A stretch of 64,000 nt of DNA, taken from contig CM097883.1 of NCBI GenBank assembly GCA_044892505.1, forward strand, positions 276,644,001-276,708,000, read 5' to 3'. The translations under genes and the position numbers were made by a program. This DNA is from Schmidtea nova. Taxonomy: Eukaryota. The notes under the pieces are model-generated. The model was given only the letters and a program-made list of their open reading frames with translations. It was not told the origin of the DNA and made no database searches. The number at the start of each line of letters is the position of its first letter. Positions within the stretch are counted from its first letter, which is position 1. Shown piece by piece: positions 1-61,739 of this stretch.

Positions 1-1894
1 CTTCCACTATATCTGGTCTATAGCTGACCACCAATGTTTCGCGTGTTTCGACTTCCTTATATACCAAAGACGAAATCACGTATGATTTTCCGTTGGCCTC
101 CAATACGCCATAGTAAGGGAAGTTTGAAACTGATGATTGGTGTACCGGTTTCCCGTCGTATTCTTTTATCCGAGGTACCCAATTTCTCTCTGGTCGCTGC
201 CAAAAACTAGGGTCTTCATTGTCCAAATCCTGGGGTATCTTTGCTGAATTTCCCGTTCCAACGAAATCCCCTTCTCTTATAATAATAGGTTCGCCCTTAA
301 CCTCCGGAATCTGTTCCATATCGGGTGGGATGAATGCTGTTTCGATTAAATCTTTGTCTTCCGTCGAGATGGGATTTGGTACTTTCTTTTTGATCTTTAG
401 ATCTTGTAACCTTACAACAGGTTCTTGACTTTTCTTTGGGGGTGACTTTTCTACTGAAGTCAATTTTTTAAAAGTCTTAGTAACTTTTTCCAAGAGCTTG
501 TTCTCTTTCTTTGGTGGATTTTCTGGCACGATCTTTGTAATTGTACGGCTGTCTCCGTGTAAAGTTAAACGCATCTCTGTTTGCTCCTCACCCTCGCTTT
601 CGCAGGTGGCGTAATCGTCTTCATCAGCTAAGGATATAGCTGGAGGGGATAGTGATTCTTCCTCAACTATCTTTTGCAATTTGGTTGATAATGGTTGTTC
701 CTGGGGTAAGCTCTCAATAGCTTTCCTTTTACTCGTTTCTTGTGGCTGTATTGTATGAACCATTTTGACTTCTGATGTAATCGTCCCACTACGATTACCT
801 GGGGTAATGTCATCTACCCAAACTTCTCTCAGTTTAAGGTAAATATTACGTGTCGTTTCCACGTCATTTTCCGTTTTCAGATCTGAACGGTTTAGTTCTT
901 CTTTTTCGAGAATTGACTTTGATAAATACGCGAGTCGATAATGTCCGTTACATTTCTTTAGTTCTCTCGCTTCCAGGCATTTTGCTGCTCCTAGTTCTCT
1001 AATGCCCAATACTCGTTGAGGGTGTAACTGGACTGCTTCCAAGAAATCGTTGACTTGGAGACCTATTAGAATTTTCCCATCACATAATTTTCTAATACGG
1101 TCTGCGCAATCCTCTCCATCAAATTGTCCGATGATTTCTTTTTCGGTCATACCATGCACGTGCGATTGGTAATGTTTGACCTGGTTTCTGGGTGTAACCA
1201 CCGTGTTTAGTATTAAATCACCACAGTAGTTTGCTATCGAAACAGCCACCAAAGCTGGCTTTAAATAATCTCGCAAAGTTGCGTAATGCGCTGCAACAAA
1301 TATTGACAATCTATCTTCTTGATTGGGGTGCAGATTCATCCGAACAAAGGATTTGAATGATTTGAGATCGTTCTCATTCACATTATAGGTCCAGGCAGGT
1401 TCATTTTTCCACAATGATTGCACTGCCTTGCTAGGTTCCAAAATCTCTAATACCACAATAGTATTATATCCGTCACATTGGATGGAGATATTCTTTTCTC
1501 TGCCATCTCCGTTACTAATTTCTAGAGTTGATTCTGGTTGAAGTAGGATGGGTCCTGTGGCTCCTGCCATGAAGATTGTAAAGGGTTTATTGATCGCGTG
1601 AATCAGGAGATGGTGAGTAAATGTTGATCTGTTAAATTCCGCCATGTGTTCAGTCAACCGGGTGTTCTCACGGCTGGTAATTGTGACTATGCACATTTGT
1701 CTCTTAGGCGATCCGAGAAACTTAAAATTGTTTGGGATGCCGGTGCAGTGCCCGTAATACCAATAGCGACGACCTTTCCGTGCTTCTGCGGATATCGCTT
1801 TTTCGATGTTTCGATAAATCAGTTTTTCCTTCTGTACTGTTTGCACATCGATAGTGCTATAACGCTGCTTGTATTGTGACACTTGATGCTTCAT
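1..1894 (-). CDS. Accessory ORF (>630 aa, open to window edge) with a REXO4/ISG20-like DEDDh exonuclease fold lacking the Exo I acidic residues
   Basis: Manual translation from ATG 1894 (MKHQVSQY...) shows no stop down to position 1; the frame is also open upstream to the TGA at 2083-2081. Residues at about 818-1306 read ALVAVSIANYCGDLILNTVVTPRNQVKHYQSHVHGMTEKEI...DGKILIGLQVNDF...LAYLSKSIL...ENDVETTRNIYLKLREVW, paralleling REX4-family motifs. Confidence 0.8.
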   Translation of the reverse strand, partial: MKHQVSQYKQRYSTIDVQTVQKEKLIYRNIEKAISAEARKGRRYWYYGHCTGIPNNFKFLGSPKRQMCIVTITSRENTRLTEHMAEFNRSTFTHHLLIHAINKPFTIFMAGATGPILLQPESTLEISNGDGREKNISIQCDGYNTIVVLEILEPSKAVQSLWKNEPAWTYNVNENDLKSFKSFVRMNLHPNQEDRLSIFVAAHYATLRDYLKPALVAVSIANYCGDLILNTVVTPRNQVKHYQSHVHGMTEKEIIGQFDGEDCADRIRKLCDGKILIGLQVNDFLEAVQLHPQRVLGIRELGAAKCLEARELKKCNGHYRLAYLSKSILEKEELNRSDLKTENDVETTRNIYLKLREVWVDDITPGNRSGTITSEVKMVHTIQPQETSKRKAIESLPQEQPLSTKLQKIVEEESLSPPAISLADEDDYATCESEGEEQTEMRLTLHGDSRTITKIVPENPPKKENKLLEKVTKTFKKLTSVEKSPPKKSQEPVVRLQDLKIKKKVPNPISTEDKDLIETAFIPPDMEQIPEVKGEPIIIREGDFVGTGNSAKIPQDLDNEDPSFWQRPERNWVPRIKEYDGKPVHQSSVSNFPYYGVLEANGKSYVISSLVYKEVETRETLVVSYRPDIVE

Positions 1895-2080
1895 ATCTGA
1901 AAGAAAAATAATTAACGTTAATATCAGATATACTGATAGGCCAATATTGGCTAAAAAGAAATGCATAAATCTCGATTTACGGGATCTACTTATGCTGTAA
2001 GTTAATGCTACTCGGAGCTCAACAAGATTATAGATTTTAATATATATATAAATACAAATATGCGATTTTATCTGTAATTG

Positions 2081-2242
2081 TCATAATCTCGTCATCATAA
2101 TCCCATCAACCGACTCAATGGCCTGACTGAAGAATAGTTTCATCCAAACTCCCATTGCTATCAATGTAGTGATCATAGCTAATACTGCTGACGTAATAAT
2201 CCATACCCAACGGGTAATTTTCCCAAGTGAGTAATGGGGTTT
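2081..2242 (-). other. Transmembrane-anchor peptide encoded in the -1 frame relative to the polyprotein end
   Basis: The -1 frame reads KPHYSLGKITRWVWIITSAVLAMITTLIAMGVWMKLFFSQAIESVDGIMMTRL*. It opens just before A-AAC-CCC (2242-2236). Confidence 0.6.
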
Positions 2243-5200
2243 ACTTCATTAACTTCACACTGACAACTTTTAATATAGCTTTCTGTTGATACTGTTGGTT
2301 TTACCATTTTCAATCCTTTCAATCTCTGCCATATTGCAGGATGAATGACGTAACTTTCTTTCCGTATCAATGATGTAACCGATTTCGTTGTCGTCGATGA
2401 TTGTGGTAATTTCAAAGAGATAACTTCATAAAATACCTCATTCCATTCATCGACTCCTGGCTTTTGTTTATTATTCATATAAGTGATATGAGCTTCCCAC
2501 TCCACTGAGCTGTTCCACTTGAGATTTTGTTTCTCAATATCTTCATTTAGCCACAATTCTTGTACTATTTCCTTGTCGGAATGGATTTCTATCTTTACTC
2601 TATCCACTCCTTGTTTTGGTTGGCTGAAGGTAATCATACCTTGTTGGATATTTATTCTAACTTTCCTTTTGAAATCTGCTGTCTTCAACTTCCATTGTGA
2701 CTTTGAAAAATCTGACCATCGTCCAAACATAAAATGTTGAACAAGTATATCTAACAGATATTCCTTTTCTGCTCGTAAGTCCTTTATGACTTTCACTCTT
2801 GTGTTTGAATCCAATGTAAAATGGAAACAACGTCGTTCGCAAAACGAGAACTTGAATTTTGTATCATTTTCAGCTAATGATATTATCCTAAATTCCTGGA
2901 AAGATCTTCTAAATGCGAGATCTTGAATTTGTACCGCTGTTGGAACAAATGTCTTTACACAGGATATAAGGCAACTTATTATTACCAAAAACGTAACTGA
3001 TTTTGGCACGCCTCTTGATCGTAATGGATATCTGTCTGAGACTGGTTCTGACCCTTTATCCTCCTTTTTCTTAATCGGATCTTTCTCCGTGACCGCAACT
3101 TTCTTGCATCTGTTAGCATGTACCATTATTGGTTCAGCTTTTCTATTTGCTACTAATTGCAAGATTAAATTCGTGTCTGTGGTTCTCAAAACCTCATATG
3201 GTCCTTTGAAGTTTCTCATTAATTTAGGTGATAAGCCCTTTTTATTATAATGGCTTTCCAACATCACCTTGTCTCCAACTAACATGCCATGTCCTTTGGC
3301 TTTCTTATCATGATAATCTTTCGACGCTTCCTGACTGAATTTTATACTAAGACCTGCTTTTGTCCATGCTTCTTGCATTCTTTCTCTCATTTCCATGAGA
3401 TAATCCTCTTGGTCTAAATACTGCGTTGCTTTTGGGAAAAACAACAAGTCTATAGGCATTTTACTTTGCCTTAAATACATGAGATAGAACGGCGTTTGTC
3501 CCGTACCCTCATGAACAGCATTTCTGTATGCGAATAAGCATGATGGAATATGTATATCCCAATCCGTTTGCCCTGAATTTACGTATGATGCTAGCATATT
3601 TGCGAGCGTTCCGTTAAATCTCTCTACCAATCCGTCTGTTTGTGGATGATACGGAGAGGTATTCAATTTTAAAATGTCGAAATAATCATTTATTCCTTTT
3701 AACAGATTACTCATGAAATCTGCTCCTCTATCTGTTAGTAGTTTTGTAGGTACTCCATACCTAAAAACAATTTGCTCTACGAAAATCCTGGCTATCGTAT
3801 CTGCCTTGTGATTCGGTATCGGATAAGCCTCCAGCCATTTTGTCAGGTAATCGCAAAATACCAATATGTATTTGTTACCACTATTTGATTCTTTGAATGG
3901 CCCTAAAACATCCATCGCCGTCATTTCCATCGGTGTGGATGGTACTGGCATTGGTTTCATTGGCACATGAGGTTTCTTCCCCGTATTTCTCCTGGTGATA
4001 CAGATCTTACATGTCTGACACCATTCCTGTACGTCTTGTTTTATTGTCGGCCAGAAATATTTCTGCTTCAACCTTGACAATGTTTTCCTGGAAGACAAAT
4101 GCCCTCCCAGTGCTCCATCATGATATTGTAACATCAAGGCTTCCCGATATTTCTTAGGGACCATTATGACATTATCCCTTACGTCTACATATTTGACTAA
4201 TCCTTCTTCTAGAATAAATTTGTCTCGATTTTTCTCCCAATATTTATTAAATTCCGTCGGTATGAACTTTGCTTCTAAAGCCTGTCTGATTTGGTTTATC
4301 TCTTCATCCGATTGTTGTGCTGCCATTAAATCCGCGAGTCTGTTTGCTTCTCTTGTAAGTGCGAAGATTGTTCCTTCTAATCTTCCTTCTTTGATATCTT
4401 CTGCTTCATCACCTTGGTCCATTCGCGAAAATGCATCTGCATTCCCATTTTGATGTCCTTTTCGGTAATGTATTTCGATGTCATATGGCTGCAAGATCAA
4501 TGCCCATCTAACCAACTTTGATGTATCCATAGTATGCTTTGTTAACCACTGTAATGGTCTATGATCCGTATACACAATGATCTTTCGACCCCATAAATAT
4601 GTCCTGAATTGGTGTATAGCATACACAATTGCTAATGCTTCTAATTCGATAACTGCATAATTCTTTTCATGTGGTTTTAATCCTCTGCTAGCATACGCTA
4701 TGGCATATTCGTCTCCTAGGTCATCTCTTTGACCTAACACAGCACCAATACCCCGAGTGCTGGCGTCCGTCATGACCAAAAATTGTTTCTCAAAATCTGG
4801 AAACCGTAATATAGGAGGTTCCACGAGCATCCTCTTTAGCATATCAAATGCTTCCTGTTGCTCTTTTCCCCATACAAATTTGACATTTTTGCCCTCTAAT
4901 TGTGTCAGAGGAAATGCTATTGCCGAAAAGTTCCTGATGAACTTTCTATAATATCCCACTAAGCCCATAAACCCTTTTATATGTTTGACTGTCTTTGGCT
5001 CTGGAAAATTCTTTGCTTTCTCAACATTTGCTGGATCTGGTTTTACTCCATCCTTCGAGATAATGTGACCGACATAGACTACCTCTGATTCGGCCCATTT
5101 ACATTTCGATGGTTTTACCTTAAGATTTGCATTAATTAACCTTTTGAATACGTCCTCTAAATGTTCTAAATGTTTTTCCAAATCTGGAGAAAATACTATG

Positions 5201-8200
5201 ATGTCATCTATGTATACCATTGCATGATGAACATCCATTAACATTAGATTCATGGCTCTTTGAAACGTTGCCGGCGCTCCTGTGAGACCAAATGGCATTA
5301 CTGTATATTCGAAGTGTCCAAGGCTTGTAGAAAAAGCCGTAATTGGTATTGTCTCCTCTTTTAACTTGATTTGGTAAAATCCCTTCTGAGCATCCATCAC
5401 TGAGAAATATTTTGAATTTCTCATGCGTCCGTAAATGTAATCCAGTAATGGTAATGGGTGACTATCCTTGCAAGTTGCTTCGTTTACCATTCGATAGTCG
5501 TTGCATAGTCGTACCGTTCCATCCTTTTTGGCCACCACTATCATTGGTGACTGGTATGGTGATTTACTATGCCTGATGATGTTATGTTTTAACATCAGTT
5601 TTACCTGCTTATCGACAGGTTCTTCCAAGCTAAACGGAATTCGATACGGTCTCAGTTTTATTGGTTTCATGTTGTTAAGAACAATTTCATGTTCCAACAA
5701 GTTCGTCTTTCCCAGATCATATTCGTGCTTGGCGAATACTTGATCATATTTTCTTAATAACATGTTGACTTGGATATTCTCTCTTCGTGAAAGAGCTTTG
5801 CTATTTGCCGTTGGCGCATCATAGTACTCGATGTCTGATTCTCTATTTTCTGCCTTTATTGTCAGGACAGATCCTCCATTTGGTAATTGATCCGACTTTG
5901 ATACTCTCCCTACTCTTGTATCTGGGTACAATTTTAATGGTTTTATATCTAAATTGGCTACCCGAATTGGTATTCTGCCATTTTCAACTTTACCAATGCT
6001 ATGCGTAATTGGTAGATTATATTTTGCTGAGAACCTTTCATCTGGTTCGAATACAACTTCTCCTTCCCACTGTTCGCTAGTGGACACGAAACATACTGTT
6101 TCTGCTCTGGGTGGTATTATCATCGTATGGTCGATGAAAACTGTATCATCATTATAAACTTTTCTTTTCTTACCGATTGATCTAACTAACAATCCGGTAG
6201 CACAGTCAAATACAACTCCTTTTAATCTTCTTAAAAGATCCATTCCTAGTAGACATTCTACTGGACAAGTTCTCATGACTATAATATCATGACGAAATTC
6301 TTGGTCACATAGCTTGATGTTACAAGCTAGAGTACCAATAATATTCAATGATGTGCCTGTAGCACCTGTTAGCGAAACTCTTGAGGTTTCCATTGATTCC
6401 AATTCTTTTTGATTTAATAGTGTTGCCTCTATGATGGTGCCGTCTGCTCCTGAATCTATCACTGCATTAACTGTGTGTCTGTTTATTTTTATCTTTATCA
6501 TGGGTTTCTTATCCAAGTTCACCCCATTTGCCATCAAAATAGTAGCATGCGTTATCCCGATGGTATTTGCTCTGAATTTCTCTGCTTCATCTTGTTCGGT
6601 ATCACTCAATTTTGGATTATATTCCTTAAATTTAGCTTTTATTGCTTCTAACGACTCGATAGGATACAGTTTCCCTTCATTTTCTAACGATAATGATATG
6701 CTTTTACCAGTCTCTCGAGCATCTTTGTCGAGAATTTGTTGATGTTTAGAAATGTACATTTTGTTTCTTGGAGTGGTTAAAGCATAATTTTGTTTGCCCT
6801 CTCCTGATGTCTTTTGAAACTCTGGCGATTCCCCCTTTGGCGCTGTTGGCAAGCTTCTAAGATATGGTAATTGCATATATCTTGGGCTTCTTTTCAATCT
6901 AGGTGATGCTGTATTGATTGTAAATTTCTGGTCTGCACTATCGTATTCATCTTCTGAAATCATACTTTTGTCGAAAATCTGTTTTGTCGCTTCGTAAGGT
7001 GGTTGATAATCCCGATATTTCATTTTCCTTAACTGATGATTCGGTTTTTTATTGTAGTTTCTTTTTCGACTTCTACTTTGCCTCTGAACTGTATTAAGAG
7101 AGTCTCCATTACCTCCTCCTTCCGAATTGTTATCGTCCCGATAACTTGTATTACCCTCCATTTCGATTCCAATAATCTCGTGTTTTACCAAGCTTCTCTG
7201 TTTGATTGTCTTTATTTCTTTACGATGATGTTTAAACAATGCAAATTCCGCACACATAGGACACAATCCTAGTATCAACTTCCAAGACCATCCACCGATT
7301 TTGAATATACTGTATGTGGAGATTAATTGTGTTATTATTAACTTTAGAATTACGAATATTGCATATATTCCTGAGCAGCCTGCCACGAAAATACCAAAAT
7401 TGGTAAACCTTCCCCATATTTTCATCATCACATTTTTAGCTGCTTCTTTATAATGATCTGGACCGAATAATAAATTGTAATCTGGTCTCATTTCGTTTGC
7501 TTGGTAAATTGTTCTTATGATTTCAGTGATACCTCTTTCTCTTACTTGAGGGAATAGCAATGTCTGTCTTGCCTCCTCAATGTCTGCTGAAGTGTAAATT
7601 CCTCCTTGTGATAATTCATCGAGTGATTTAAATTCCATGTTTTCCTCGAGTTTCGTGACTTCCAATGTTTCCACCTTTCTATTAGATGGTTTTCTGTCAG
7701 GTAATGAGATCCATCTATCATTTACCTTGTATAACGGTGATATTGCTGGATTGCAAATTGAAGGTTGAGGCTTTTGTTTTTCATCCAAAAGTCTCCTCGT
7801 AACTGGCATTACAAATCGTATTTTGTTTTGATATGACACTGGTAATTCTAGAGTACATTCATTATACCGAGTTAATTGTACCTCTATGGGTTGACATTGA
7901 TAGCTGTATATAGCTTCCCCCATAATTCTGCCAAACATTCCATCTTCTAGCAACATAGGTGTCACTAGATCCGGATTCACAATTGATATCGCTAATCGAT
8001 TTCGAACTATTTCGCGATTTAGTTTGCAATCATTGAGTATTACTTCCTGATACATTTCCTGCATTTGTCCTTGCAGATCATGATATAAATAATCTATTTT
8101 ATTATTTATATAGTTCGTGATTTTGATATCCTGGCTGTGAATATTCTTGGCTTTTTGGATGAATGTTTTTGACAAATATAATCCTTTATAGTTGGTCTCA

Positions 8201-11200
8201 TACACCACTTTTCCGCATTTTGTCTTCTTATCTTTTCTGACAAATCTGATTGCATCTTTCTTATCTTCTGATACTAATACTAGAGGTGTGATTTCCTCAC
8301 TAATATCCTCTTTTTGCTGTTTGTTGATCCTTTTCAACGTCTTTTCTTTATCCCAAATTCTTTCTCTTTTGGGTAAATCTCGATACTTTGTCCCGTTCAA
8401 CTTATGGAAATTAATTTTCTTTAGTAATGACAATTCGCAATGGTCTAGTATTTGATCGTATAATAATGTAATGACCCCTGTTCTGCAGCTTCCAAATTTC
8501 GCAAGGCACTGAGGGTGTGCCATTAATCTTCCTGATAATACATCGAACGTTCCTTCGTATTCTCTTAATTCGATTGAATAGTCCTCGATATCTACGACAA
8601 AACTTACCAACTCCGATCCGCGAGTTTTCTTTCTTCCCGTACAGGTACCATCTGATCCGATTGATCCTCCTCGTGTAATGGTTACTCCCAGTGTTTTTCC
8701 TACTTCCGCGGCGATGGTTACCTCGTTATCGATTCTTAAAGTACCTTTTCGAAAGGCGTCTAGACAATCCTCTGGCAATATGTTGACAGGTCTAGGTATT
8801 AGAGTGGCTGATAGAAAAGCTGTATAGCTGTGTGAACCACAATAATATTCAAACGTTGCTCTTTGGACTCTACATTCTCTTATCTTAGTTCTGAAGAATT
8901 CACTTTCTTGGTAGACATAGTATTCGACCTTTTCTCCTGTTTGGACCTTTTCTGGATGTGCCTCTTTGCACTCAATTGCATCTACGAGCGAATATATCCG
9001 AGCTAACTTTGGATCACTGCAATCAAACGCTGTCATTGTGTTTGTCTGTTTCATTATCCCCATCATTACTAAAAACATTAATATCATATTCGTCATATTC
9101 CCCATTCCTCCATTTTCGAGGTGGTTGTTATTCATAGCCTCTTCCACAAATTCATATCGTGGTTTATGTTTCTCCTCTTCCCAGAAATTATTTTCACTCA
9201 TCCACGTTCCGAGATAATGCTCCGTTATCTCCGTGATCTGGTCTATTTCTCGATTAATAAGCTTCTTCTCATTGCCTGCGCGGGCTAAAGCATCTTGAAT
9301 CAACATAGATAATGCTGTCACTATTTTTCCTTTAGATAACCCATCTTGTATGAGTGTCTCTAACATACTCTGTATCTCGTTTTGCGGTACCCCTCTAGGT
9401 AATCTCCTCATCGTCTTCGCGATTGACTGTGTTACTTTATCCACTTGAATTCCTTTAATCCGAGTAATCTGCCATTCTGGCTTTAATATTCCTATGATCT
9501 GTTTTAATCTCTTCCATGTCAGAGATTTTTCTGGTATATGTACACCTTCGTCTCTCATATCAACATCCCTGGCTATTCCTGACAGAGTTTTCATCTGAAC
9601 CTGTTTAATGGTTTCTTGGTTTAATTGCTCCGTTGGTGGAGGTTTCATTTGATCTTTCCTAGGCCTTCCTCGCCTATCTTTCTTTGTCTGCCATGCTGGC
9701 CTGATAGTTTCTACCGCCTGAGAAGTTGAAGCTCCCACGTTAGTTTCCTCATTATTGAGTCTGATTTCCTCTTCTCCGTGATTATCGGCATCGATATCTA
9801 CATTAAATGGTTGTGTTTCAACATTACCAGTGACCATTTCATCTGGTAACCGTAATGCTGACCATTGAGATTCAGGTGGCTCTACGGGAATGATTGCTAC
9901 CGTTGTAGTTTCAAAAGGTAGACATCCCACATCTACTAAATATTCATCATCATCCACTTGTCCTCCATGAATCATAATCAAGAATATACCGGTAGTCTGC
10001 CCAGTATCTATTAAATCCTTTCTCAACGTTATCACTTTGCTAAAACAACGATATAACCTCGTCATGGGTTCTTTTCCCGATATTCGAATGTCTAAAGTTA
10101 TCATGCCTTGTCGATGTGCTTGATGACGTATTGCTGTTCCATTTTTTCTTATTAACATTTTTATTTCTGTTTGAAAAGAACTAGTTTCTTTTACTACAGG
10201 TAGTAATATAGGAATTATATTCTCCAATGATTCTACTGGTATGCGCAATACCAACATCCAGTCTAATATTTCCTTGATTGTTTCTCCATCCCTCGGAGAT
10301 TTCTGCAGCTCTATCTTCAGACGTTGCTCTATTTGTTGGACCTCCTCCAACTGTGCAATTTCCATTTGTGTGAGTAGAAACACACTGTCTTGATCCACTA
10401 CTGGGACCGATATTCCTGTCAGTTTCGTTGTGAGTTTCGTTACCCTTCCTGGTAATACACCATTTTGTAGTAGTGTTTCCCCAACTACTAACTTTTCTCC
10501 ATATAAATAAAAATCATATCTATTATGTTTCAATTTCATCATTGTATCTGACAACTTATCTGTTCGACATCTTACATTCATGTCGATGTTAAACTCCTGC
10601 TCCTGAGGAAGTTTTATGTTTAAATGCGAATCCTGAAGATCCCATTCATGCTCCATTGCAGTTCCTATCTTTCGTAGGATTTTATGTATGTCGCTATTAT
10701 ACCTTGGATCATCTTCGACCTGAGATATTAATTGTAATATCTTTCCAATTTCACTATTCTTGATATCACCTTGTGATAATTTCTCTAATTCTCTAGTCAG
10801 TCTCTGCTGATACTCATATCTGGAATCCACCAGTTTTAAACATTTTGCTAGGGTATCTGACCCTTTCTTGGCCTTTGTTTCCTTGAACAAAGCCTGGTCG
10901 AACTCGCTCAGTATGGTACTCATACTGGGTTCGTCATCATTATCAGAATTTGTCTCTGATTCTATTACCTCATGATTCTCGCTGCTGGAATCCATGGGTT
11001 CACTATTTCCTTGCTCATCTGTGTAAGCATCATGATTTTTCTCAGCTGAAATCATCAAAACTGTTCCTTGCCCAACTGTGTGAGCATCATCGCTTTCCTC
11101 AATGGGATTCATTATAACTGTTCCTCGCCCATCCATGTGAGCATGATTTTTCTCAGCTGAAATCATAAAAACTGTCTCTTGCCCAACTGTGTGAGTCTCA

Positions 11201-12468
11201 TTTATTTCTTCAATTTTATTCATCAAAACTGTTCCTCGCTCATCTGTGTGAGCATGATTTTTCTCAGCTGAAATCATAAAAACTGTCTCTTGCCCAACTG
11301 TGTGAGTCTCATTTATTTCTTCAATTTTATTCATCAAAACTGTTCCTCGCTCATCTGTGTGAGCATGATTTTTCTCAGCTGAAATCATAAAAACTGTATC
11401 ATCTCGATCCATTAGCCGTGCTAATCGATTTTTCTCCTCCTGGATTTCCATTTCCAGTTGTTGCAAATACGTCAATTCTTTATCGTGATTGACCATGAAC
11501 GTAGTTTTCGGCTTGCTGACATTACCACTATTGGTAATCCTACTATTCGTATTATTACTCTGATTTTGAGGACACGACCTCAGAATATGCCCGAATTTTC
11601 CACATCCGTGACATTTTATCTTCCCTGATGAATTCACATCATCCCTTTTAATATTAAAATTCCCATTCGTTGGGAGATTCCTAACTCTACAAACGGAAGC
11701 AACATGCCCTCTGCGTTTGCATTTATCACACTGCAAGTTCGTGACTCTACAGTTCTCAACACTATGATTATTCATACCACATTTAGTACACTGAATACCC
11801 CTACGAGTATCAGCTACCTTCTTACTGTGGCAATCTTTTGATATGTGCCCTTTCTTATGGCAGTTAAAACATTCAATTGCTGGCTTCTCATTATTTACCA
11901 TAAATGATGTAGCTTTTTCTAAGCTGCTTTCGATTACGACAGCTTTTCTTGTTAATTCCCAAAAATCATCTCCCGTGTGGAGAATCAATGCATTTCTCAT
12001 TACATTTGTGAATCCAGCTAATAATTGGTCTTTAACCATAGCTTTAGTTGCATCATTCCAGGTAGTTCTGAGCCCAAATGCTCTTTCTGCTAATAACAAT
12101 AATTGATAGGAAAATTCTCCTACATGTTCATTTGCATTCTGCTTCCTGTGATAAAATTGTTGTCGGAAAATTCTACTTGAATCTCCCGGTAATATTCTAG
12201 CCGTTAGTGATTCTCTCATCTTTTCCCATGTACCTGGTTTATCTGCTGCTGGTAACGCCATAATATCATTGTAATTTTCCCTTGCCATACCCTTAAGGTA
12301 AATTGGCAGTCTTTGTATCATTATTGCATCTGGATACCCATAGGCCTTTGCCATCTGATAATACTCTGACATAAACTCCGGAAATTCCCCTGGATCTCCG
12401 CTAAATGCCTTGACAGGTAAAGCGGGATATCTAGCAAAAACATTATTCTCTTCAGCCATGTCCTCCAC
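2179..12468 (-). CDS. 3429-aa Gag-glycoprotein-Pol-ectodomain polyprotein
   Basis: Uninterrupted ORF in the track, with recognisable Gag, viral glycoprotein, PR, RT, RNaseH and IN motifs in that order. Confidence 0.95.
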   Translation of the reverse strand: MEDMAEENNVFARYPALPVKAFSGDPGEFPEFMSEYYQMAKAYGYPDAIMIQRLPIYLKGMARENYNDIMALPAADKPGTWEKMRESLTARILPGDSSRIFRQQFYHRKQNANEHVGEFSYQLLLLAERAFGLRTTWNDATKAMVKDQLLAGFTNVMRNALILHTGDDFWELTRKAVVIESSLEKATSFMVNNEKPAIECFNCHKKGHISKDCHSKKVADTRRGIQCTKCGMNNHSVENCRVTNLQCDKCKRRGHVASVCRVRNLPTNGNFNIKRDDVNSSGKIKCHGCGKFGHILRSCPQNQSNNTNSRITNSGNVSKPKTTFMVNHDKELTYLQQLEMEIQEEKNRLARLMDRDDTVFMISAEKNHAHTDERGTVLMNKIEEINETHTVGQETVFMISAEKNHAHTDERGTVLMNKIEEINETHTVGQETVFMISAEKNHAHMDGRGTVIMNPIEESDDAHTVGQGTVLMISAEKNHDAYTDEQGNSEPMDSSSENHEVIESETNSDNDDEPSMSTILSEFDQALFKETKAKKGSDTLAKCLKLVDSRYEYQQRLTRELEKLSQGDIKNSEIGKILQLISQVEDDPRYNSDIHKILRKIGTAMEHEWDLQDSHLNIKLPQEQEFNIDMNVRCRTDKLSDTMMKLKHNRYDFYLYGEKLVVGETLLQNGVLPGRVTKLTTKLTGISVPVVDQDSVFLLTQMEIAQLEEVQQIEQRLKIELQKSPRDGETIKEILDWMLVLRIPVESLENIIPILLPVVKETSSFQTEIKMLIRKNGTAIRHQAHRQGMITLDIRISGKEPMTRLYRCFSKVITLRKDLIDTGQTTGIFLIMIHGGQVDDDEYLVDVGCLPFETTTVAIIPVEPPESQWSALRLPDEMVTGNVETQPFNVDIDADNHGEEEIRLNNEETNVGASTSQAVETIRPAWQTKKDRRGRPRKDQMKPPPTEQLNQETIKQVQMKTLSGIARDVDMRDEGVHIPEKSLTWKRLKQIIGILKPEWQITRIKGIQVDKVTQSIAKTMRRLPRGVPQNEIQSMLETLIQDGLSKGKIVTALSMLIQDALARAGNEKKLINREIDQITEITEHYLGTWMSENNFWEEEKHKPRYEFVEEAMNNNHLENGGMGNMTNMILMFLVMMGIMKQTNTMTAFDCSDPKLARIYSLVDAIECKEAHPEKVQTGEKVEYYVYQESEFFRTKIRECRVQRATFEYYCGSHSYTAFLSATLIPRPVNILPEDCLDAFRKGTLRIDNEVTIAAEVGKTLGVTITRGGSIGSDGTCTGRKKTRGSELVSFVVDIEDYSIELREYEGTFDVLSGRLMAHPQCLAKFGSCRTGVITLLYDQILDHCELSLLKKINFHKLNGTKYRDLPKRERIWDKEKTLKRINKQQKEDISEEITPLVLVSEDKKDAIRFVRKDKKTKCGKVVYETNYKGLYLSKTFIQKAKNIHSQDIKITNYINNKIDYLYHDLQGQMQEMYQEVILNDCKLNREIVRNRLAISIVNPDLVTPMLLEDGMFGRIMGEAIYSYQCQPIEVQLTRYNECTLELPVSYQNKIRFVMPVTRRLLDEKQKPQPSICNPAISPLYKVNDRWISLPDRKPSNRKVETLEVTKLEENMEFKSLDELSQGGIYTSADIEEARQTLLFPQVRERGITEIIRTIYQANEMRPDYNLLFGPDHYKEAAKNVMMKIWGRFTNFGIFVAGCSGIYAIFVILKLIITQLISTYSIFKIGGWSWKLILGLCPMCAEFALFKHHRKEIKTIKQRSLVKHEIIGIEMEGNTSYRDDNNSEGGGNGDSLNTVQRQSRSRKRNYNKKPNHQLRKMKYRDYQPPYEATKQIFDKSMISEDEYDSADQKFTINTASPRLKRSPRYMQLPYLRSLPTAPKGESPEFQKTSGEGKQNYALTTPRNKMYISKHQQILDKDARETGKSISLSLENEGKLYPIESLEAIKAKFKEYNPKLSDTEQDEAEKFRANTIGITHATILMANGVNLDKKPMIKIKINRHTVNAVIDSGADGTIIEATLLNQKELESMETSRVSLTGATGTSLNIIGTLACNIKLCDQEFRHDIIVMRTCPVECLLGMDLLRRLKGVVFDCATGLLVRSIGKKRKVYNDDTVFIDHTMIIPPRAETVCFVSTSEQWEGEVVFEPDERFSAKYNLPITHSIGKVENGRIPIRVANLDIKPLKLYPDTRVGRVSKSDQLPNGGSVLTIKAENRESDIEYYDAPTANSKALSRRENIQVNMLLRKYDQVFAKHEYDLGKTNLLEHEIVLNNMKPIKLRPYRIPFSLEEPVDKQVKLMLKHNIIRHSKSPYQSPMIVVAKKDGTVRLCNDYRMVNEATCKDSHPLPLLDYIYGRMRNSKYFSVMDAQKGFYQIKLKEETIPITAFSTSLGHFEYTVMPFGLTGAPATFQRAMNLMLMDVHHAMVYIDDIIVFSPDLEKHLEHLEDVFKRLINANLKVKPSKCKWAESEVVYVGHIISKDGVKPDPANVEKAKNFPEPKTVKHIKGFMGLVGYYRKFIRNFSAIAFPLTQLEGKNVKFVWGKEQQEAFDMLKRMLVEPPILRFPDFEKQFLVMTDASTRGIGAVLGQRDDLGDEYAIAYASRGLKPHEKNYAVIELEALAIVYAIHQFRTYLWGRKIIVYTDHRPLQWLTKHTMDTSKLVRWALILQPYDIEIHYRKGHQNGNADAFSRMDQGDEAEDIKEGRLEGTIFALTREANRLADLMAAQQSDEEINQIRQALEAKFIPTEFNKYWEKNRDKFILEEGLVKYVDVRDNVIMVPKKYREALMLQYHDGALGGHLSSRKTLSRLKQKYFWPTIKQDVQEWCQTCKICITRRNTGKKPHVPMKPMPVPSTPMEMTAMDVLGPFKESNSGNKYILVFCDYLTKWLEAYPIPNHKADTIARIFVEQIVFRYGVPTKLLTDRGADFMSNLLKGINDYFDILKLNTSPYHPQTDGLVERFNGTLANMLASYVNSGQTDWDIHIPSCLFAYRNAVHEGTGQTPFYLMYLRQSKMPIDLLFFPKATQYLDQEDYLMEMRERMQEAWTKAGLSIKFSQEASKDYHDKKAKGHGMLVGDKVMLESHYNKKGLSPKLMRNFKGPYEVLRTTDTNLILQLVANRKAEPIMVHANRCKKVAVTEKDPIKKKEDKGSEPVSDRYPLRSRGVPKSVTFLVIISCLISCVKTFVPTAVQIQDLAFRRSFQEFRIISLAENDTKFKFSFCERRCFHFTLDSNTRVKVIKDLRAEKEYLLDILVQHFMFGRWSDFSKSQWKLKTADFKRKVRINIQQGMITFSQPKQGVDRVKIEIHSDKEIVQELWLNEDIEKQNLKWNSSVEWEAHITYMNNKQKPGVDEWNEVFYEVISLKLPQSSTTTKSVTSLIRKESYVIHPAIWQRLKGLKMVKPTVSTESYIKSCQCEVNEVNPITHLGKLPVGYGLLRQQY
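2236..3000 (-). other. Post-integrase extension: hydrophobic signal-like segment, one or two FN3-like domains, Ser/Thr stalk
   Basis: RYPLRSR then VTFLVIISCLISC; IKDLRAEKEYLLDILVQ...GRWSDFS (FN3 L-x4-Y-x3-V pattern and WSxWS-like motif); sequons NDT and NSS; stalk PQSSTTTKSVTS. Confidence 0.55.
3140..4330 (-). other. Integrase domain
   Basis: HDGALGGH...CQTCKIC; MDVLGP; TDRGADF; LVERFN; GPYEV; no chromodomain seen. Confidence 0.93.
4425..5760 (-). other. Reverse transcriptase and RNase H domains
   Basis: RLCNDYRMVN, MPFGLTGAPATFQR, VYIDDIIVFS, TDASTRGIGAVL, ELEALAIV, TDHRPL, NADAFSR; catalytic residues intact. Confidence 0.95.
6200..6510 (-). other. Retropepsin (aspartic protease) domain
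   Basis: VNAVIDSGADGTII ... CLLGMDLL. Confidence 0.9.
7200..9105 (-). other. Chuvirus (Jingchuvirales)-like fusion glycoprotein embedded in the polyprotein
   Basis: Signal-like MILMFLVMMGIM, then AFDC, CRVQ...YYCG, GSIGSDGTCTG, CLAKFGSC, YETNYKGL, YINNKIDY, GRIMGEAIYSYQCQP, CTLELPV...FVMPVTRRLL, GGIYT, and WGRFTNFGIFVAG leading to a TM segment. The motif order matches the chuviral G family as I recognise it. Confidence 0.85.
9653..9684 (-). other. AT-hook motif
   Basis: KKDRRGRPRKD fits the R-G-R-P core with basic flanks. Confidence 0.6.
9886..10623 (-). other. Two putative ubiquitin-like (beta-grasp) modules separated by a helical segment
   Basis: FYLYGEKLVVGETLLQNGV (10432-10623) and LIMIHGGQVDDDEYLVDVG (9886-10104) resemble the ubiquitin/SUMO LIFAGKQLEDGRTLSDYNI segment; neither ends in GG. 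Confidence 0.4.
11010..11397 (-). repeat. Coding tandem repeat, 111 bp / 37 aa, about 3.5 copies
   Basis: TVFMISAEKNHAHTDERGTVLMNKIEEINETHTVGQE occurs twice identically, then a diverged third copy and a partial fourth. Confidence 0.97.
11570..12468 (-). other. gag: Gag: capsid-like domain plus four CCHC zinc knuckles
   Basis: FSGDPGEFPEFM...LPIYLKGMA; CFNCHKKGHISKDC, CTKCGMNNHSVENC, CDKCKRRGHVASVC, CHGCGKFGHILRSC. Confidence 0.9.
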
Positions 12469-12528
12469 AACTTTTGTCTTTTTAGGAGCTATTTTGTATA
12501 TAACAATATGCCCACTGATAATAATTGA

Positions 12529-12546
12529 ATCACGTCGGGCTCACCA
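12529..12546 (-). promoter_or_regulatory. Primer-binding site complementary to the 3' end of tRNA-Trp
   Basis: TGGTGAGCCCGACGTGAT differs at one base from the tRNA-Trp PBS TGGTGACCCCGACGTGAT, and lies 3 nt after ...CCGAACA. Confidence 0.85.
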
Positions 12547-12549
12547 AAA

Positions 12550-13358
12550 TGTTCGGTTCGTATCAGTGGTTTACGACGAACACAGAAATATAAATATATA
12601 TTTGATACTTTAGTTTGATTATCGGACTCCAAACGATAATCCGCTTATTAATTATAAATAAATTATATGTTTTAGGTTGTGTGTAAAGAAAAACAAGATC
12701 TAATTCCTTTTAATAATATGTATTGTGAAATATGTAAATCAATGTACAATATAATAAAATAGCTGCTAAGCAAAAGTTAGAGAATCGGTTATACAAACCG
12801 TCCTAAGATGTTTAAGAACGAAAGCTGGACCTAAAAGGCTCAACAGCTCCGACTAAATGAAAGGACACAAGATGAGGGGTTTCCCTGTAGTTTAACCGCG
12901 ATAGTGACAACCCAGAATTGGTTGTCACTGTGACTTAATAATTTTCCCTTCTAATAATTTATTATTTAACGATTTTGCTGAAGGGGAAAAATAGTAATAC
13001 AACTATTTCCCCGTGATCGATTTATAAGATTTAAAACAAAACTAGGAAAATTACCAGCTACTAAAGATTATTCCAATTTAGGGAAATTATCACGAACGAA
13101 ATTCAAGCTAAGCTTCTTGTAATACTTCTGCCGTAAAATTAATTTCTCCAATTCACAAATTTGTCAAACTAAAATTCTAAAATTCACTTCGGTAAAATTT
13201 ATGTTCTGTAAACACTTATGTTTCTCTCTCTACTTCTGTCAAAATTACTTTCTGTTTCAACTGATTTTGCAATCAGTTTATATACAAATTATTTTCTCTC
13301 ATGTAGGTCTAGACGACCACCTATTACTAACTACGTGTAGGTCGAAATTGACCTTACA
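12550..13358 (-). repeat. Putative 5' LTR (~809 bp)
   Basis: Ends in ...AACA just before the PBS; candidate start TGTAAGG at 13358, beyond which the sequence becomes low-complexity AT. The outer boundary is unconfirmed because the partner LTR is off-window. Confidence 0.6.
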
Positions 13359-13580
13359 AAATATTACTTTTAAAGTAATTTATTATTACTATATATATCT
13401 TATTATTACTATTTAAATTTCTTATGTATTTATTTATTACTATATTTATTATATATTATTTAATTATTACTGTATTTAATCTATATTTATTTATAGTAAT
13501 TATTTATTTATTTTCTATTTATCTATTTATTTATAGTATTTTTTAATTACTATTTATATTTATTTATTTACTTATAATAT

Positions 13581-15605
13581 TTAATTACAAAAACCCCGAG
13601 ATCCCTTGATCTCGAACCCTAACAGTCCTTCATCCTGTGACATTTCTTCATGAAATCTCTTTCTTTGCCGAACTCTTTGTTGCTTATAGTCAGTATTAAT
13701 ATCACATTTTTTAGCCAGCTCAGTTGCTTCATTCTCAATCTGTTCGAACTCAGATTCAAATTCACTACGCATGTTTTTCATATCGTTTTGAAATAGTTGA
13801 ATCAAATGAGAAGCTGTTGCCAAATCAATACTACTTCTCTGCAAATATGTGGACAGACTGAAAGCCTTATCTAGCACTTTTTTCCATAATATTAAAAGAA
13901 CTAAGAATTTGTATGCATAAAGTGTTACAAGAATACCCTTTGCCTCAGCCACCTGTTTAGAAGTACAGTTTTTTAACTCACCATCCACAATTCGTTGCAG
14001 GGCAACTAATAGTGCTGGTAAATTCTGCAAGACTGCATCTACAGCTGATTTCCTGGATGCCCATCTGGTTTCGCAAAGTCTTTTTAGAGTTAATGTAAAC
14101 GATTTTATATGATTGCATTGTTCTTTTAATATTGAAAGACGAGGTAAACTGCCAGAAAAAAATGTATAAAAACTTTCAAGGGTTCCAAAAAATAACTGAG
14201 TTTGAACATTGGAGGTTACTGTGTCAATTAGAATTAAATTTAAATTTGGTGCACAACAGTGGGTAAAGAGCGCATTTGGAGCAATCTGCCTAACTCTTGC
14301 TTGGAGACCTGATATTTCCCCCGACATTGTGCTAGCTCCATCATATGACTGACCATAACTCATAGTTATTGACAAATCCAAGTTTTCAATTGCTGAAACA
14401 AAAACGTTGAAAAAATCTGGGGCACTTGCTCCCGGTAATTCACTGAATTTTTTAAACCTCTTTACTGCATCGCCATTTTCTGTTACATATCTTAAAGATA
14501 AAGAAAACTGGTCAATGCTACTTATATCAATAGTTGAGTCAACAATCACTGCAAAATACTTAGCTACTTTGATTTCATCCACAATATTTGATAGAATCTG
14601 AGATGATATGGATTGTATCAGATCATTTTGTATATCGGGTCTGAGATATGTTGCATTTCGATCAATCATTAATAAATGTTGTTCCAATATTGCATCATTT
14701 TTAGCCAACAGTTTAATCAGTTCAAAGAAATTCCCTTCGTTTGTCACTGGTGAACCTAAGCCTTGATACTCACGATGGCCACGGAATGCCAATCCTTGTT
14801 TTCCCAAAAAAAGTACTGCATCAATGATACGTTTTAAAATCATCCTATTTTTTCTATTTCTTTCTTTTCTGTTGTCAGAAGACCAGACAACACAATTCTA
14901 TCGTTAAACAACCGGAATTTTGTAAGAAATAGTTCTTTCTCTGCTTTTTTGTGACTTTCGCTACTTTCATGTTTTTCAATTTTGTGCGTGCCTTAAGCAA
15001 AATTCTTGCAGCCAATATTTGGATCACTTCAAGTATCGGATCGACTAGCAAAAAGCCAACAAGCAAAACAAATCATTATATTAGCTTTTGGTGAGTAGAC
15101 CAGCCAATGTCTATCAATTTCTCGACCACCTTTTACTTGTTTCTTCTTATACCAATTAGCACTGAAATGACGTCCAGTTTCATCTTTTGGGAAATTTTCA
15201 AATTTATCTTTAAGACCCAGCTGACACGGACTTAACTCAAGTAGTGCACGAACTAGTTCTGGCGGCACAGGTTTGTCACAAAACAGATGTGGATCTGTTG
15301 GGTATTCCATGTTTGGGTCAATAACTGCACGAAGTCTTATTCTAACTGTGTCATCTTCGTCCTCCACAATAGGGTCTGTTGACGTGATTAGGCCTACTGT
15401 TGAATCAGAACCCACTTCCTGAATAGTCACGGCAGCCGGAGTTGTGGTGTTGTTATCAACTCCTAGATTTGTTGTGAATTCTTTTTCTGACACGGAAGAC
15501 GTCGCAGACATTGTTGGATTGCTGAATGAAAAATATGCATCCAATTTTGTATATTTTGAAGATTCTCTTTCACGATCTTCGACTTCTTTTTTCCTCTTTT
15601 TATCC
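13581..15605 (-). pseudogene. hAT (ZMYM1-like/DUF4371) transposase, frameshifted and truncated at both ends
   Basis: TTF-type zinc finger WLVYSPKANIMICFACWLF; KHESSESH in a shifted frame; LGKQGLAFRGH, DSTIDISSIDQ, YDGASTMSG, HCCAP (HCxAH altered), CETRW; no C-terminal dimerisation domain. Confidence 0.88.
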
Positions 15606-23539: not shown

Positions 23540-51008
<27,469 letters not shown>

Positions 51009-55192: not shown

Positions 55193-57104
55193 CCGTATTT
55201 TCGCGCATATAACCCGCATACGCGTATAATCCGCACACACGTATAACCCGCACAAATTACATAATAAGTAAAATAAAATCGTATAGCCCGCACCTATGTA
55301 TACCCCGCATATGTACAAGGTTAACTAATCATTAATCATTAACTAATCATTAGCATTCATTATAGATATTCAGTAGTGTTTGTTACGTCTAAAAATGCCA
55401 AAGCGGAAGTCTTATACCGCTGATTTTAAGCTACAAGTTTGTGCGCTTGCTGCTACAATAGGCAATAGAGTAGCTGGGAGGCAGTATGCTGTTGATAAAA
55501 AATCTATTCGTTAATGGCAAAAAGACATTAAAAGTTTAGAGCAGATTAATCCACGCAAAAGAGCTCGTCGATGGGGAAAGGTTAGAGGGCCGCAGCTTGA
55601 GACAAACCTTTCAGCATGGGTTCGCTCTCAGCGTGAGAACAACAGGGCAGTGTCAACAGTTGGTATTAAATTGAAAGCGAAAATAATGGCTGCTGAAATG
55701 AAGATATATAATTTCACTGGTGGCATCAACTTGGTTTTAAAATTCATGAGACGTAATCAACTTTCCGTTCGTGCACGCACAACGGTTGGCCAGAAACTGC
55801 CAGAGAATTGGGAAAAGAAAGTAGACGACTTTCAGGAATTTGTTAGAAGAGATATTGCAGAACAGAACTTAAATCCTTGCGATGTCATTAACATGGATGA
55901 GGTGCCTATTTCTTTTGATATTCCAGCAACTCGCACTGTCGCAGATACTGGTTCTAAAACGGTTCCTATTACCACAACCGGACATGAGCGCACATGTTTC
56001 ACAGTTGTCCTGGCATACTCAGCTGCTGGTGAGAAGTTGAAACCAATGGTTATATTCAAACGAGTGACAATGCCACGTGAGAAACTGCCACAAGGAGTGA
56101 TTGTTGTGTGCAACAAAAAAGGATGGATGAACACTGGTGTGATGAAAGAGTGGATTGAAAGATGCTATCGTGCTAGACAGGGTGGATTCTTTATGCCAAA
56201 ATCGTTGTTAAGTTTTGATGCAATGGCTGCACACAAAGAGACATCTGTTCACAAACAGATCAATAAGACTGGTGCTCACATTTCTGTCATTCCAGGCGGT
56301 TTAACATGTAAGCTTCAGCCACTTAATATTGCTGTTAATCATCCATTCAAGTGTTTTGTCCACAATGAATGGGAAAAATGGATGAGTGAAGGCGAACACA
56401 CATTCATACTAGCTGGAAAGCAGAGACGTGCTACGTACGTTGAAGTATGCAAATGGGTTCTGGCAGCGTGGCAGCAAATCAGCACAGAAACTATTCGCAA
56501 CGGTTTCATTAAGGCTGGCCTGCTAACGGTGACCAGTAGTGAAGTTAATGCAGAGCCAGCAGTAGAGGAATGTTTCGATTCAGCTGACGATGATGATAGT
56601 GATGAAGAGTCAATTTATGACCAAGGTACTGCTGCCAACATGCTTCGGTTCCTTGATGAAGACAGTGAATATGATACAAGTTTCGATTGCTTCACTAACT
56701 GTAGCGAGGACAGTGACAGTAATGGTGATTGATTATGAATGTATTGCATGAAATGTGGACTATAGGTTTGGACATTACTGCCGAATTGGTTTACTTGCTT
56801 ACTTATGGCAATTGATTATATTAAATGTTCTCTGCCACATCCGTATAACTTGTTTTCTAAACGTGTATTATTTGTAAATTTTCTTCTAATGAGATGTTCA
56901 TAAAGTTATTCGTTTTACATTTGAGAACCACACAGCGAAACTACAGATTTTAACACAGTGGATAAATGCGTGAACCTCTATTGAAGGTAAAAGTTTTATG
57001 AGTAAAATTATTTTTGAAAACCCCGCACCCTTGCATACCCCGCACAGCGACAGTTTGTTTGTAAAAACTTGTATAACCCATGGGTTATATGAGCGAAAAT
57101 ACGG
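55193..57104 (+). mobile_element. Full-length pogo-family (POGK-like) DNA transposon, inactivated
   Basis: 23-bp TIRs CCGTATTTTCGC(G/T)CATATAACCC, TA TSD. Confidence 0.93.
55395..56732 (+). pseudogene. pogo transposase (Brk-type DBD, CENP-B HTH, DDE_1) with a premature stop
   Basis: MPKRKSYTADFKLQV...; TAA at 55512-55514; NMDEVP, SFDAMAAH, and LQPLN in place of QPLD. Confidence 0.9.
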
Positions 57105-60396: not shown

Positions 60397-60515
60397 TGTA
60401 GTGCCTTAGATTAAATTTTCAATTTTATAAATTAATTAATTATTAAATGGAGTAAAATAGATGTTGTTTTAATATTTACATATTTTCACTTTCATGCTAA
60501 TCAAAAAAAAACAAA

Positions 60516-61739
60516 ATGCAAGCTGTTAACAATGATTCGATATTCCCATTCACCCAAGACATTCACAGTGACTCGTTTTCATCAAATGACAACAATTATC
60601 AGTTCTACTCTAGTGGAGATGGTGTAGTCAATATTCAAAGAAGAAACAATTGCCTGTTCCGTAGATTGCAGAAATGTTTCGCTGCTGAAATGCGTAAAGA
60701 AGCCGTACAAACTGGAACATGCCTGTCAACAACTGGATCAATATTAATCTACTATCCAGACAAATCTGAAATCACTAACTCAAAAAATCTACAAATCAAT
60801 ACATTGGATCACAATCAATCTCGATTAAACGATTATTCGCCAGCACCAGAAATCAATCAATACGGACTGTCATGGAGCTCGCTCATTTCAACTCTTGTTA
60901 TCATCGGTCAAGATTTCCGGTTGCCAAAAACCGACTTATCAATTAGCGATCAATTTCTATTAATAAAAACTTATTTGCTTTTATTATTCCTACGATTGGT
61001 GTCAGAAGTGACAAAAGTAAGCTTTTTGAATTTATTATGTAAATATTTAAATTCGTTTAATTGCTCCATTTATATTAATAATAATTTTAATAATATATTC
61101 AATAAAAATTTTAATAATTATTTTAATAATAATTTTCATACTCCGATAACCAAAACTACAACAGTTTCCTCTACGTGTTCACAACCATTTACCCTTCATG
61201 ACGGCTTACTCAACATCACTGTACGCCACAAAAATATTATTCACTCAATTAAAATACCACGACAAACTTTTTTAACGATATTAAACGTTTTTTTAATAGA
61301 ACACAACGACTTCTTTATTTTAAATAACAGAGTTCCCATCACAGATCCTCTTTCAGTCCCAACAAACGCAATAATAACACTCTTCATGCGGGCAAGAGGC
61401 GGTGCCAAAACTTACAATGACCATAACCCTCCCACGTCCATAGGTCACACTCAACTGATATTTTTAGACGCAGACGGCACACTATCATCTTGGTTCCGAA
61501 TTTTTGAATCGCGCACTAGAGCCAATCCCAAGTCTAGGCAAGATCTTCTGCTGGATGCAATACCCGACGAGTTAATGTCAGAATTAGGCTCACAAATAGC
61601 TGACGCATTAAACTCAGAAACCCCTTATGAATCAATCAAAGCGGTCATAGAAAAAAAATATTCACCCACGCGCACTTCAGCGATCGAAAAGTTATCAAAA
61701 CCCACCCTATACGCCGGTCAACCCCCATCATCCTTTTGA
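60516..61739 (+). CDS. 407-aa ORF: unknown leader, ubiquitin-like domain (61209-61403, ends RGG), N-terminal Gag
   Basis: ORF track; LNITVRHK...ITLFMRARGG followed by the Gypsy Gag-like SWFRIFESR...YESIKAVIEKKYSP...PPSSF*. Confidence 0.55.
   Translation: MQAVNNDSIFPFTQDIHSDSFSSNDNNYQFYSSGDGVVNIQRRNNCLFRRLQKCFAAEMRKEAVQTGTCLSTTGSILIYYPDKSEITNSKNLQINTLDHNQSRLNDYSPAPEINQYGLSWSSLISTLVIIGQDFRLPKTDLSISDQFLLIKTYLLLLFLRLVSEVTKVSFLNLLCKYLNSFNCSIYINNNFNNIFNKNFNNYFNNNFHTPITKTTTVSSTCSQPFTLHDGLLNITVRHKNIIHSIKIPRQTFLTILNVFLIEHNDFFILNNRVPITDPLSVPTNAIITLFMRARGGAKTYNDHNPPTSIGHTQLIFLDADGTLSSWFRIFESRTRANPKSRQDLLLDAIPDELMSELGSQIADALNSETPYESIKAVIEKKYSPTRTSAIEKLSKPTLYAGQPPSSF
60997..61010 (+). promoter_or_regulatory. 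Primer-binding site (tRNA-Leu type)
   Basis: TGGTGTCAGAAGTG is a common tRNA-Leu PBS of animal Gypsy elements. Confidence 0.75.

Follow-up and report, generated by a model that had tools for sequence, protein, structure and literature searches.

A second, predicted fibronectin type III surface protein in gB-type errantiviruses of Schmidtea nova

Introduction

Errantiviruses in which an envelope (Env) gene of the gB type stands between gag and pol, the GAG-ENV-POL order, have been reported from nematodes, bryozoans and flatworms in a recent survey (Chary and Hayashi, 2026; PMC13524379). Herpes simplex virus needs gD and gH/gL in addition to gB to enter cells and, because herpesvirus gB depends on these helpers, the survey's main text treats entry by errantiviruses that carry gB alone as unexplained. 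Here we describe an element of about 15 kb on the minus strand of a 64,000-nucleotide stretch of the Schmidtea nova genome (GenBank assembly GCA_044892505.1, contig CM097883.1, positions 276,644,001 to 276,708,000 of the forward strand; hereafter the window), in which the gag-env-pol frame runs on beyond integrase into what is predicted to be a second membrane protein with two tandem fibronectin type III (FN3) domains.

The element type is already known. The errantiviruses listed for Schmidtea mediterranea measure 14.5–18 kb and reach up to 215 copies in this laboratory flatworm, and among them Smed_errantivirus_4 likewise combines a Ty3/gypsy Pol with a gB-type Env between gag and pol, a length of about 15 kb and many recent copies (PMC13524379). 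When Env fragments from the survey's supplement are compared by eye, Smed_4 falls with families A (that of the window) and C, and Smed_1 and Smed_2 fall with families D and E. After integrase the survey lists only chromodomains; its main text describes neither the second membrane protein nor the separate open reading frame (ORF) that follows it, ORF2, and makes no mention of fibronectin, attachment or exonuclease. A literature search that reached few subscription journals found no paper joining errantiviruses with fibronectin and no retroelement FN3 protein, and we have thus found no description of this second surface protein.

Paramyxoviruses place fusion and receptor binding on separate glycoproteins, F and H/HN/G. 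Herpesviruses do the same with gB and with gD and gH/gL (PMC13524379). No sequence or fold link to these partners was found for the protein described here, which differs also in being part of one retroelement polyprotein and in that its partnership with the fusogen is so far a proposal. Closer in kind is sORF2 of the Drosophila MDG1-group retrotransposons, likewise an accessory membrane protein of gypsy elements and tied to cell-to-cell transfer (PMC11952523); sORF2 is a short protein that stands in place of Env and resembles cell-cell fusogens, whereas the present protein has a predicted folded FN3 ectodomain and coexists with Env. The ORF3s of bdelloid rotifer LTR (long terminal repeat) elements offer a parallel to ORF2, since in them pol is followed by additional membrane ORFs and a DEDD exonuclease (PMC5408684). 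They are exonucleases (of the DEDDy type), esterases or short membrane proteins that replace env, and the accessible part of that report makes no mention of fibronectin.

A second membrane protein after integrase

A single frame of 3453 amino acids (aa) occupies 2179–12540 of the window (all coordinates of the element refer to the minus strand). Pfam matches give the order Gag zinc knuckles, gB-like fusogen, protease, reverse transcriptase (RT), RNase H and integrase (IN), followed in the window copy by 273 aa with no Pfam match. The fusogen, of class III (7204–9036; PF24664, Monjiviricetes_fusion, E 2.7e-85), lies between the zinc knuckles and the protease and hence between gag and pol, and with the LTR-flanked Ty3/gypsy order of protease, RT, RNase H and integrase this places the element, by its layout, among the GAG-ENV-POL errantiviruses of gB type. 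The frame holds two signal-like stretches and two membrane helices. The first stretch (9037–9096; 11-mer hydropathy 2.8) precedes Env, whose own helix hydropathy puts at about 7327–7395; Pol, with an SH3-like end to its integrase, fills 3172–6513 by Pfam; and the second stretch precedes the two FN3 domains.

A sequence-only reading of the window had proposed that this last segment is a second membrane protein with an FN3 ectodomain, and every motif that it named is present on the minus strand, in frame with gag-env-pol. The segment opens at 2950–3033 with the basic RYPLRSR (3033–3013, just beyond the range first proposed) and the second internal signal-like stretch (aa 3177–3195; Kyte-Doolittle 19-mer 1.93), and a hydrophobic stretch occupies the same position in families B, C, D and E. 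The predicted FN3 domain 1 follows at 2677–2928, its beta-rich region including IKDLRAEKEYLLDILV (2787–2740) in the E-F strands and GRWSDFS (exactly 2724–2704) at the start of the G strand. Predicted domain 2 (2407–2667) includes ITFSQPK (2634–2614) and VDRVKI (2607–2590), the motifs that had hinted at a second unit. Two N-glycosylation sequons, NDT at 2868 and NSS at 2514, were also located, and a Ser/Thr run comes after domain 2, where a Ser/Thr-rich stalk (2207–2406) has a C-x-C pair that is found in family C as well.

At the end of the stalk, at about 2200–2210, the frame of the window copy is broken, and its ORF therefore ends at 2182, short of any membrane anchor. The membrane helix (2144–2206; 19-mer hydropathy 2.17) and a short cytoplasmic tail ending in T-R-L and a stop codon (2081–2143) are encoded in another frame, across 2206–2084. 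A genome search with the tail protein, as we call the product encoded after integrase, returned 143 matches (141 of 283 candidates scored). Twenty-nine other copies, taken from the 30 best-scoring matches and hence biased toward intact ones, all read through into the helix and give a tail protein of 306 aa; in contigs from three public runs of one study, the majority form differs from the window at the same spot. Because both sources show the open form, the break in the window copy is an exception or a slip of the assembly. The earlier proposal of a second membrane protein is supported for the family, the feature being kept in other copies and in other families, but does not hold for the window copy, whose frame break it had overlooked.

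By hydropathy, a type I membrane layout of signal, ectodomain, single helix and short cytoplasmic tail fits all four families examined. The three public runs look like DNA, with flat depth that about doubles at the LTR, and no splice-type joint is visible in them; a crude scan found no pyrimidine-rich splice acceptor ahead of the signal stretch in any of five families.

Predicted fold of the ectodomain

For structure prediction we used an alignment of 18 rows from families A, B and C, leaving out families D and E, which were misregistered in the F strand. AlphaFold returned two seven-stranded sandwiches, with a predicted local distance difference test score (pLDDT) of 79 in the best of five models (70–91 in domain 1); three models exceeded 77 and two fell below 41. 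Prediction from a single sequence was poor overall (pLDDT 47), with the second domain alone usable, and this domain superimposes on the EDB domain of fibronectin with Z 8.6 and a root mean square deviation (rmsd) of 1.8–1.9 Å over 78–79 residues. Matches to domain 1 reached Z 7.8–7.9 with rmsd 3.0–3.3 Å. In Foldseek (338 matches at E ≤ 0.001) the leading matches were tandem FN3 pairs, namely Tie2 Fn2-3 (E 9e-8), fibronectin and tenascin. A wide structural search agreed on FN3, domain 2 on its own matching bacterial Ig-like sandwiches equally well, and TM-scores for the whole model were only 0.3–0.4, because the angle between the domains differs.

ESM features scored the family A tail protein as fn3 at 0.92, and all ten of its best named matches fell in one clan, a result that a third of shuffled proteins also reached; the family E protein, 13% identical, scored 0.89 and offers a lead only. 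Against a profile of 30 host FN3 domains, domain 1 scored 19.7 over 18 columns of the E-F strands, where 30 column shuffles scored 12.9 or less. The Pfam fn3 profile (PF00041) matched no family's tail protein and no single domain at E ≤ 10, and the matches in a viral structure library were limited to generic FN3 proteins from phages and large DNA viruses. As modelled, then, the tail protein comprises two tandem FN3 domains, and both the FN3 ectodomain and the second unit of the earlier proposal find support in AlphaFold, Foldseek and the wide structural search.

Sister families and selection

A similar protein follows integrase in families B, C, D and E, and in families A, C, D and E it shares one frame with Env. 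Families B and C were found through the tail protein itself. All family B copies that were read are decayed; family C has a frame of about 3549 aa, its ectodomain has at least 70 near-full matches, and the family shows the string G-L-x-P-x-T-x-Y that is familiar from FN3 domains. Families D and E were found through Env, in frames of 3401 and 3393 aa. Only 68 of 3413 first-look candidates in the Env search of the genome were scored; many more gB-like Env families are probably present, and Env families without the tail protein may exist. Two further gypsy-type elements in the window (32354–36561, minus strand; 60501–64000, plus strand) have no detected Env, and the first of these, which is frame-broken, provides a single case of an Env-less gypsy element with no hydrophobic tail after its integrase.

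In families D and E the protein fills the same slot and is longer, with a signal, a beta-rich ectodomain of about 290 aa, a stalk, a helix and a short cytoplasmic tail. Only the last, membrane-proximal domains align with those of families A, B and C (P 0.005). Since comparison of whole profiles between the two groups is not significant (probability 0.16, E 0.38), the case for a common origin is made by position, layout and fold class.

Among the 29 family A copies, pairwise ratios of nonsynonymous to synonymous differences (pN/pS) are lowest in domain 1 (0.019) and domain 2 (0.034) and reach 0.066 in the helix plus cytoplasmic tail and 0.16 in the stalk. Five family C copies give 0.16, and a comparison of the D and E tail proteins gives a dN/dS (the corresponding ratio of substitution rates) of 0.11–0.17 with dS near 1.8, dS being saturated for A against C and for A against B. 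An integrase control (pN/pS 0.25) includes a variable linker, may be out of register and is not relied on. Both FN3 domains of family A are under strong purifying selection, and the 143 genome matches, these low ratios and the confident tandem FN3 model together show the feature to be more than chance. The selection values also tell against the notion of a neutral passenger or decaying remnant. The broken frame of the window copy before its helix and the decay of all family B copies read would suit such a notion, but in families A, C, D and E its reading frame is open and purifying selection acts on the protein, and the notion is left with a very small probability.

Between families A and C, identity is about 28% in the ectodomain as against 60% in Env, 76% in RT and about 90% in the IN core. 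Low pN/pS and this difference between ectodomain and Env together mean that the tail protein is needed and yet changes faster than the fusogen. Judged from sequence, such a contrast is the pattern expected of a surface that faces the host.

The C-terminal PDZ-binding pattern

The tail protein ends in S/T-x-V/L, the class I PDZ-binding pattern, in every family, a feature missing from the earlier description of the tail. When all loci examined are counted, some of them twice, the C terminus is TRL in 34 of 35 cases in family A, SQL in five of six in B, TEV or TDV in all ten in C, TFV in nine of ten in D and E, and SRV in all ten in F; the chance expectation is about 0.025 per end. The rest of the cytoplasmic tails has little in common among the families, so far as their sequences indicate, and the pattern appears to be their best-kept feature, surviving change around it. 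TEV is the end of HTLV-1 (human T-lymphotropic virus type 1) Tax and SRV that of RhPV1 (rhesus papillomavirus 1) E7 (PMC4810129). The Env of HTLV-1 is, like the tail protein, a viral surface protein with a class I PDZ end, and by this end it engages DLG1 at virological synapses and promotes fusion (PMC4810129). In HTLV-1 the fusogen itself bears the motif; in the present elements a separate FN3 protein bears it, since Env runs on into Pol.

A second interpretation is that the protein acts in the producer cell as a membrane anchor or sorting tag, tethering Pol and the assembling capsid to a single membrane domain through its PDZ end, with the FN3 domains serving as a spacer or as a folding partner of Env. 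Pol would be tied to the signal stretch of the tail protein until cleaved, and the C-terminal pattern is what the families share best. The multi-copy, non-autonomous family F (L118:881–3712, minus strand; L119:5873–9900, plus strand) also fits. Its two copies read have gag, a shortened membrane-protein ORF with its own Met before the signal, a weak helix and an intact-looking exonuclease ORF2, and in these copies no Env or RT was found; they nevertheless retain the signal, some of the ectodomain and the SRV end. Family F may borrow Env from a helper. The pN/pS of 0.02–0.03 in the FN3 domains, as against 0.16 in the stalk, amounts to more constraint than a spacer needs, and we regard a role confined to the producer cell as unlikely.

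Relation to host receptors

The best fold matches include the ectodomains of receptors and adhesion proteins, namely Tie2, the receptor protein tyrosine phosphatases CD148 and CD45, Dscam and NCAM. These, and DCC/neogenin, likewise have a signal, tandem FN3 domains, a stalk and one helix. Identity in structural alignments is 7–16%, with no single best family, and the tail protein has no kinase or phosphatase. That it is host-derived, as first proposed, remains plausible for the FN3 fold and found no backing in a donor: among the best 30 of 92 host fn3 matches, the domain profiles gave best E values of 0.004 (domain 1) and 0.0005 (the middle domain of D/E), generic similarities that single out no donor. 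No relative was found among 1.84 billion representative proteins, nor in a search of 5.8 billion proteins with a single tail protein and a 19-row alignment, which was limited to longer proteins and is weak evidence; in the PDB, the best sequence match was an unrelated protein at E 0.74.

The receptor-like matches would suit a protein that mimics an adhesion or signalling receptor in order to manipulate the host, by blocking superinfection, loosening junctions or tying up PDZ scaffolds in the manner of several PDZ-binding viral proteins. The ends shared with HTLV-1 Tax and RhPV1 E7 (PMC4810129) fit such a role, and family F without Env counts somewhat for it. On the other side, sharing one frame with Gag, Env and Pol means that the protein is produced in equal number with them, as would befit a part of the particle, and the searches found neither a donor nor a mimicked receptor; we consider host manipulation rather improbable.

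The sequence-only reading had gone further and likened the ectodomain to type I cytokine receptors, with the implication of an immune decoy. Class I receptors are defined by two FN3 domains, the pattern CX9-10CXWX26-32CX10-15C in the first, WSXWS at the C terminus of the second and an intracellular Box 1 (PMC1963337). Two tandem FN3 folds are indeed predicted here. Kinship with these receptors is largely refuted by the position of the motif, its loss in other families and the missing cysteines and Box 1. GRWSDFS is not a strict WSxWS, a motif with no match in the tail proteins of four families, and it lies in the G strand of domain 1 rather than at the end of the second FN3 domain; family B has WIDWF in the position of WSDFS, families C, D and E have nothing alike, and G-x-W-S occurs also in two of 30 ordinary host FN3 domains. 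The L-x4-Y pattern fared no better, since its strict form as coded (L-x4-Y-x-hydrophobic-x-V/I/L) has no match in the window protein. Family A has only C-x3-C in domain 1 and family C a single cysteine there, so that the four-cysteine pattern is absent from both, and Box 1 and Box 2 were not seen by eye in cytoplasmic tails of about 20–30 aa, that of family A lacking proline.

A captured Domeless/gp130-like receptor acting as an immune decoy could still draw on the size of the tandem pair (about 185 aa), on the W-x-x-W/F that families A and B have at the G strand, and on the presence of gp130, IL-12R and class II cytokine receptors among the fold matches. Among those matches, however, cytokine receptors rank no higher than other FN3 proteins; the first stands at rank 31 in the Foldseek list, and Tie2, fibronectin and tenascin match better. 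With its motif in the wrong domain and absent from C, D and E, and neither the cysteine pattern nor a Box 1 in a cytoplasmic tail of some 20 aa, the decoy is very improbable. A search of the host with PF09240, the cytokine-receptor family, gave no match, and none for its controls either.

A model for attachment

We lean, with some reservation, towards the view that the tail protein is a type I accessory attachment or adhesion glycoprotein that works as a partner of the gB-like fusogen at cell contacts. Topology would leave Gag and Pol in the cytosol and bring Env and the FN3 pair into the lumen of the endoplasmic reticulum, where signal peptidase would free the N termini of Env and of the FN3 protein, the element protease freeing Pol. 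The FN3 protein, being last in the frame, is the only product with a natural free C terminus, and its S/T-x-V/L end may bind host PDZ scaffolds and so be brought to junctions or other polarised membrane, by analogy with HTLV-1 Env and DLG1. The FN3 pair, fast-diverging and under purifying selection, could then bind a host surface molecule and hold the particle or the producer cell to its target, giving the conserved fusogen the chance to act.

Several points weigh against this. Class III fusogens of related viruses manage both binding and fusion by themselves, and a partner may be unneeded. A fold held in common is no evidence of function. We noticed the PDZ pattern only in hindsight and, since the families share ancestry, their ends cannot be counted as independent. 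Whole-profile comparison does not join the D/E proteins to those of A, B and C, and family F shows that the frame can be maintained where no fusogen is present in cis. Attachment separate from fusion stays our best guess.

A more specific form of this proposal is a two-protein entry machine, in which a gB-like fusogen is joined by an FN3 attachment protein that its PDZ end steers to cell junctions, where it forms a synapse-like contact through which capsids pass from cell to cell, with stem cells as one possible destination. We advance it tentatively, as the less probable version. If it is true, the FN3 protein would fill the role that gD and gH/gL have for herpesvirus gB, an arrangement not described for retrotransposons.

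Other features of the element and its surroundings

The element is very young. Its 5' LTR (12550–13624, about 1075 bp, TG...CA) is identical at all 1051 compared bases to the other LTR (L105:2561–3635), which lies 1.4 kb to the left of the window, and the flanking target-site duplication is 4 bp. The primer-binding site (12529–12546) adjoins the LTR, begins with TGG on the minus strand and, we assume, resembles tRNA-Trp. The element is inserted into the end of a DNA transposon remnant, a DUF4371 frame at 13584–14897 (minus strand); a second remnant, a Tc5/DDE_1 transposase, lies at 55515–56729 (plus strand).

After the Gag zinc knuckles come three to four near-perfect repeats of 37 aa (about 10990–11380), whose number probably differs among copies. 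Between Gag and Env, families A and C carry two ubiquitin-like repeats (window 10402–10632 and 9874–10107; L053:3165–3395 and 3693–3923). Pfam matches to these are weak (ubiquitin E 0.07, UBX E 0.035), and a four-row profile found a redesigned ubiquitin (E 0.0024) and two further ubiquitin-like domains.

Downstream of the membrane protein, every family has a separate ORF2 (window 2–2080, minus strand; L065:2886–4334; L068:1653–3059; L107–L117). The window ORF2 has no Pfam match of its own and is 29–32% identical to ORF2 of families D and E (E 1e-18 to 1e-22). In families D, E, F and G, ORF2 has the DEDD exonuclease motifs D-A-E, GHD and H-x-A-L-E-D, and PF00929 is above its cut-off in F and G. 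In families A and C another sequence takes the place of the first acidic motif, which suggests a pseudo-nuclease whose first catalytic motif has apparently been lost. Frames near family F and G copies (L118:8862–9899, minus strand; L120:198–1826, plus strand) resemble by eye what we take to be a Polinton-type protein-primed DNA polymerase B, and a 240-aa frame with a Nudix-like motif beside a decayed copy (L032:2798–3517, minus strand) is presumably akin to a decapping enzyme.

Implications

A retroelement polyprotein of this design would cross the membrane four times, much as a flavivirus polyprotein does, and its free C terminus looks tuned to host PDZ scaffolds. Should the protein prove to be only a sorting tag, it would still be an undescribed gene of a very abundant group of elements. 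As a second conserved surface protein in the same frame as the fusogen, it is a direct candidate for the missing helper of errantivirus gB, in elements that have relatives in the laboratory flatworm.

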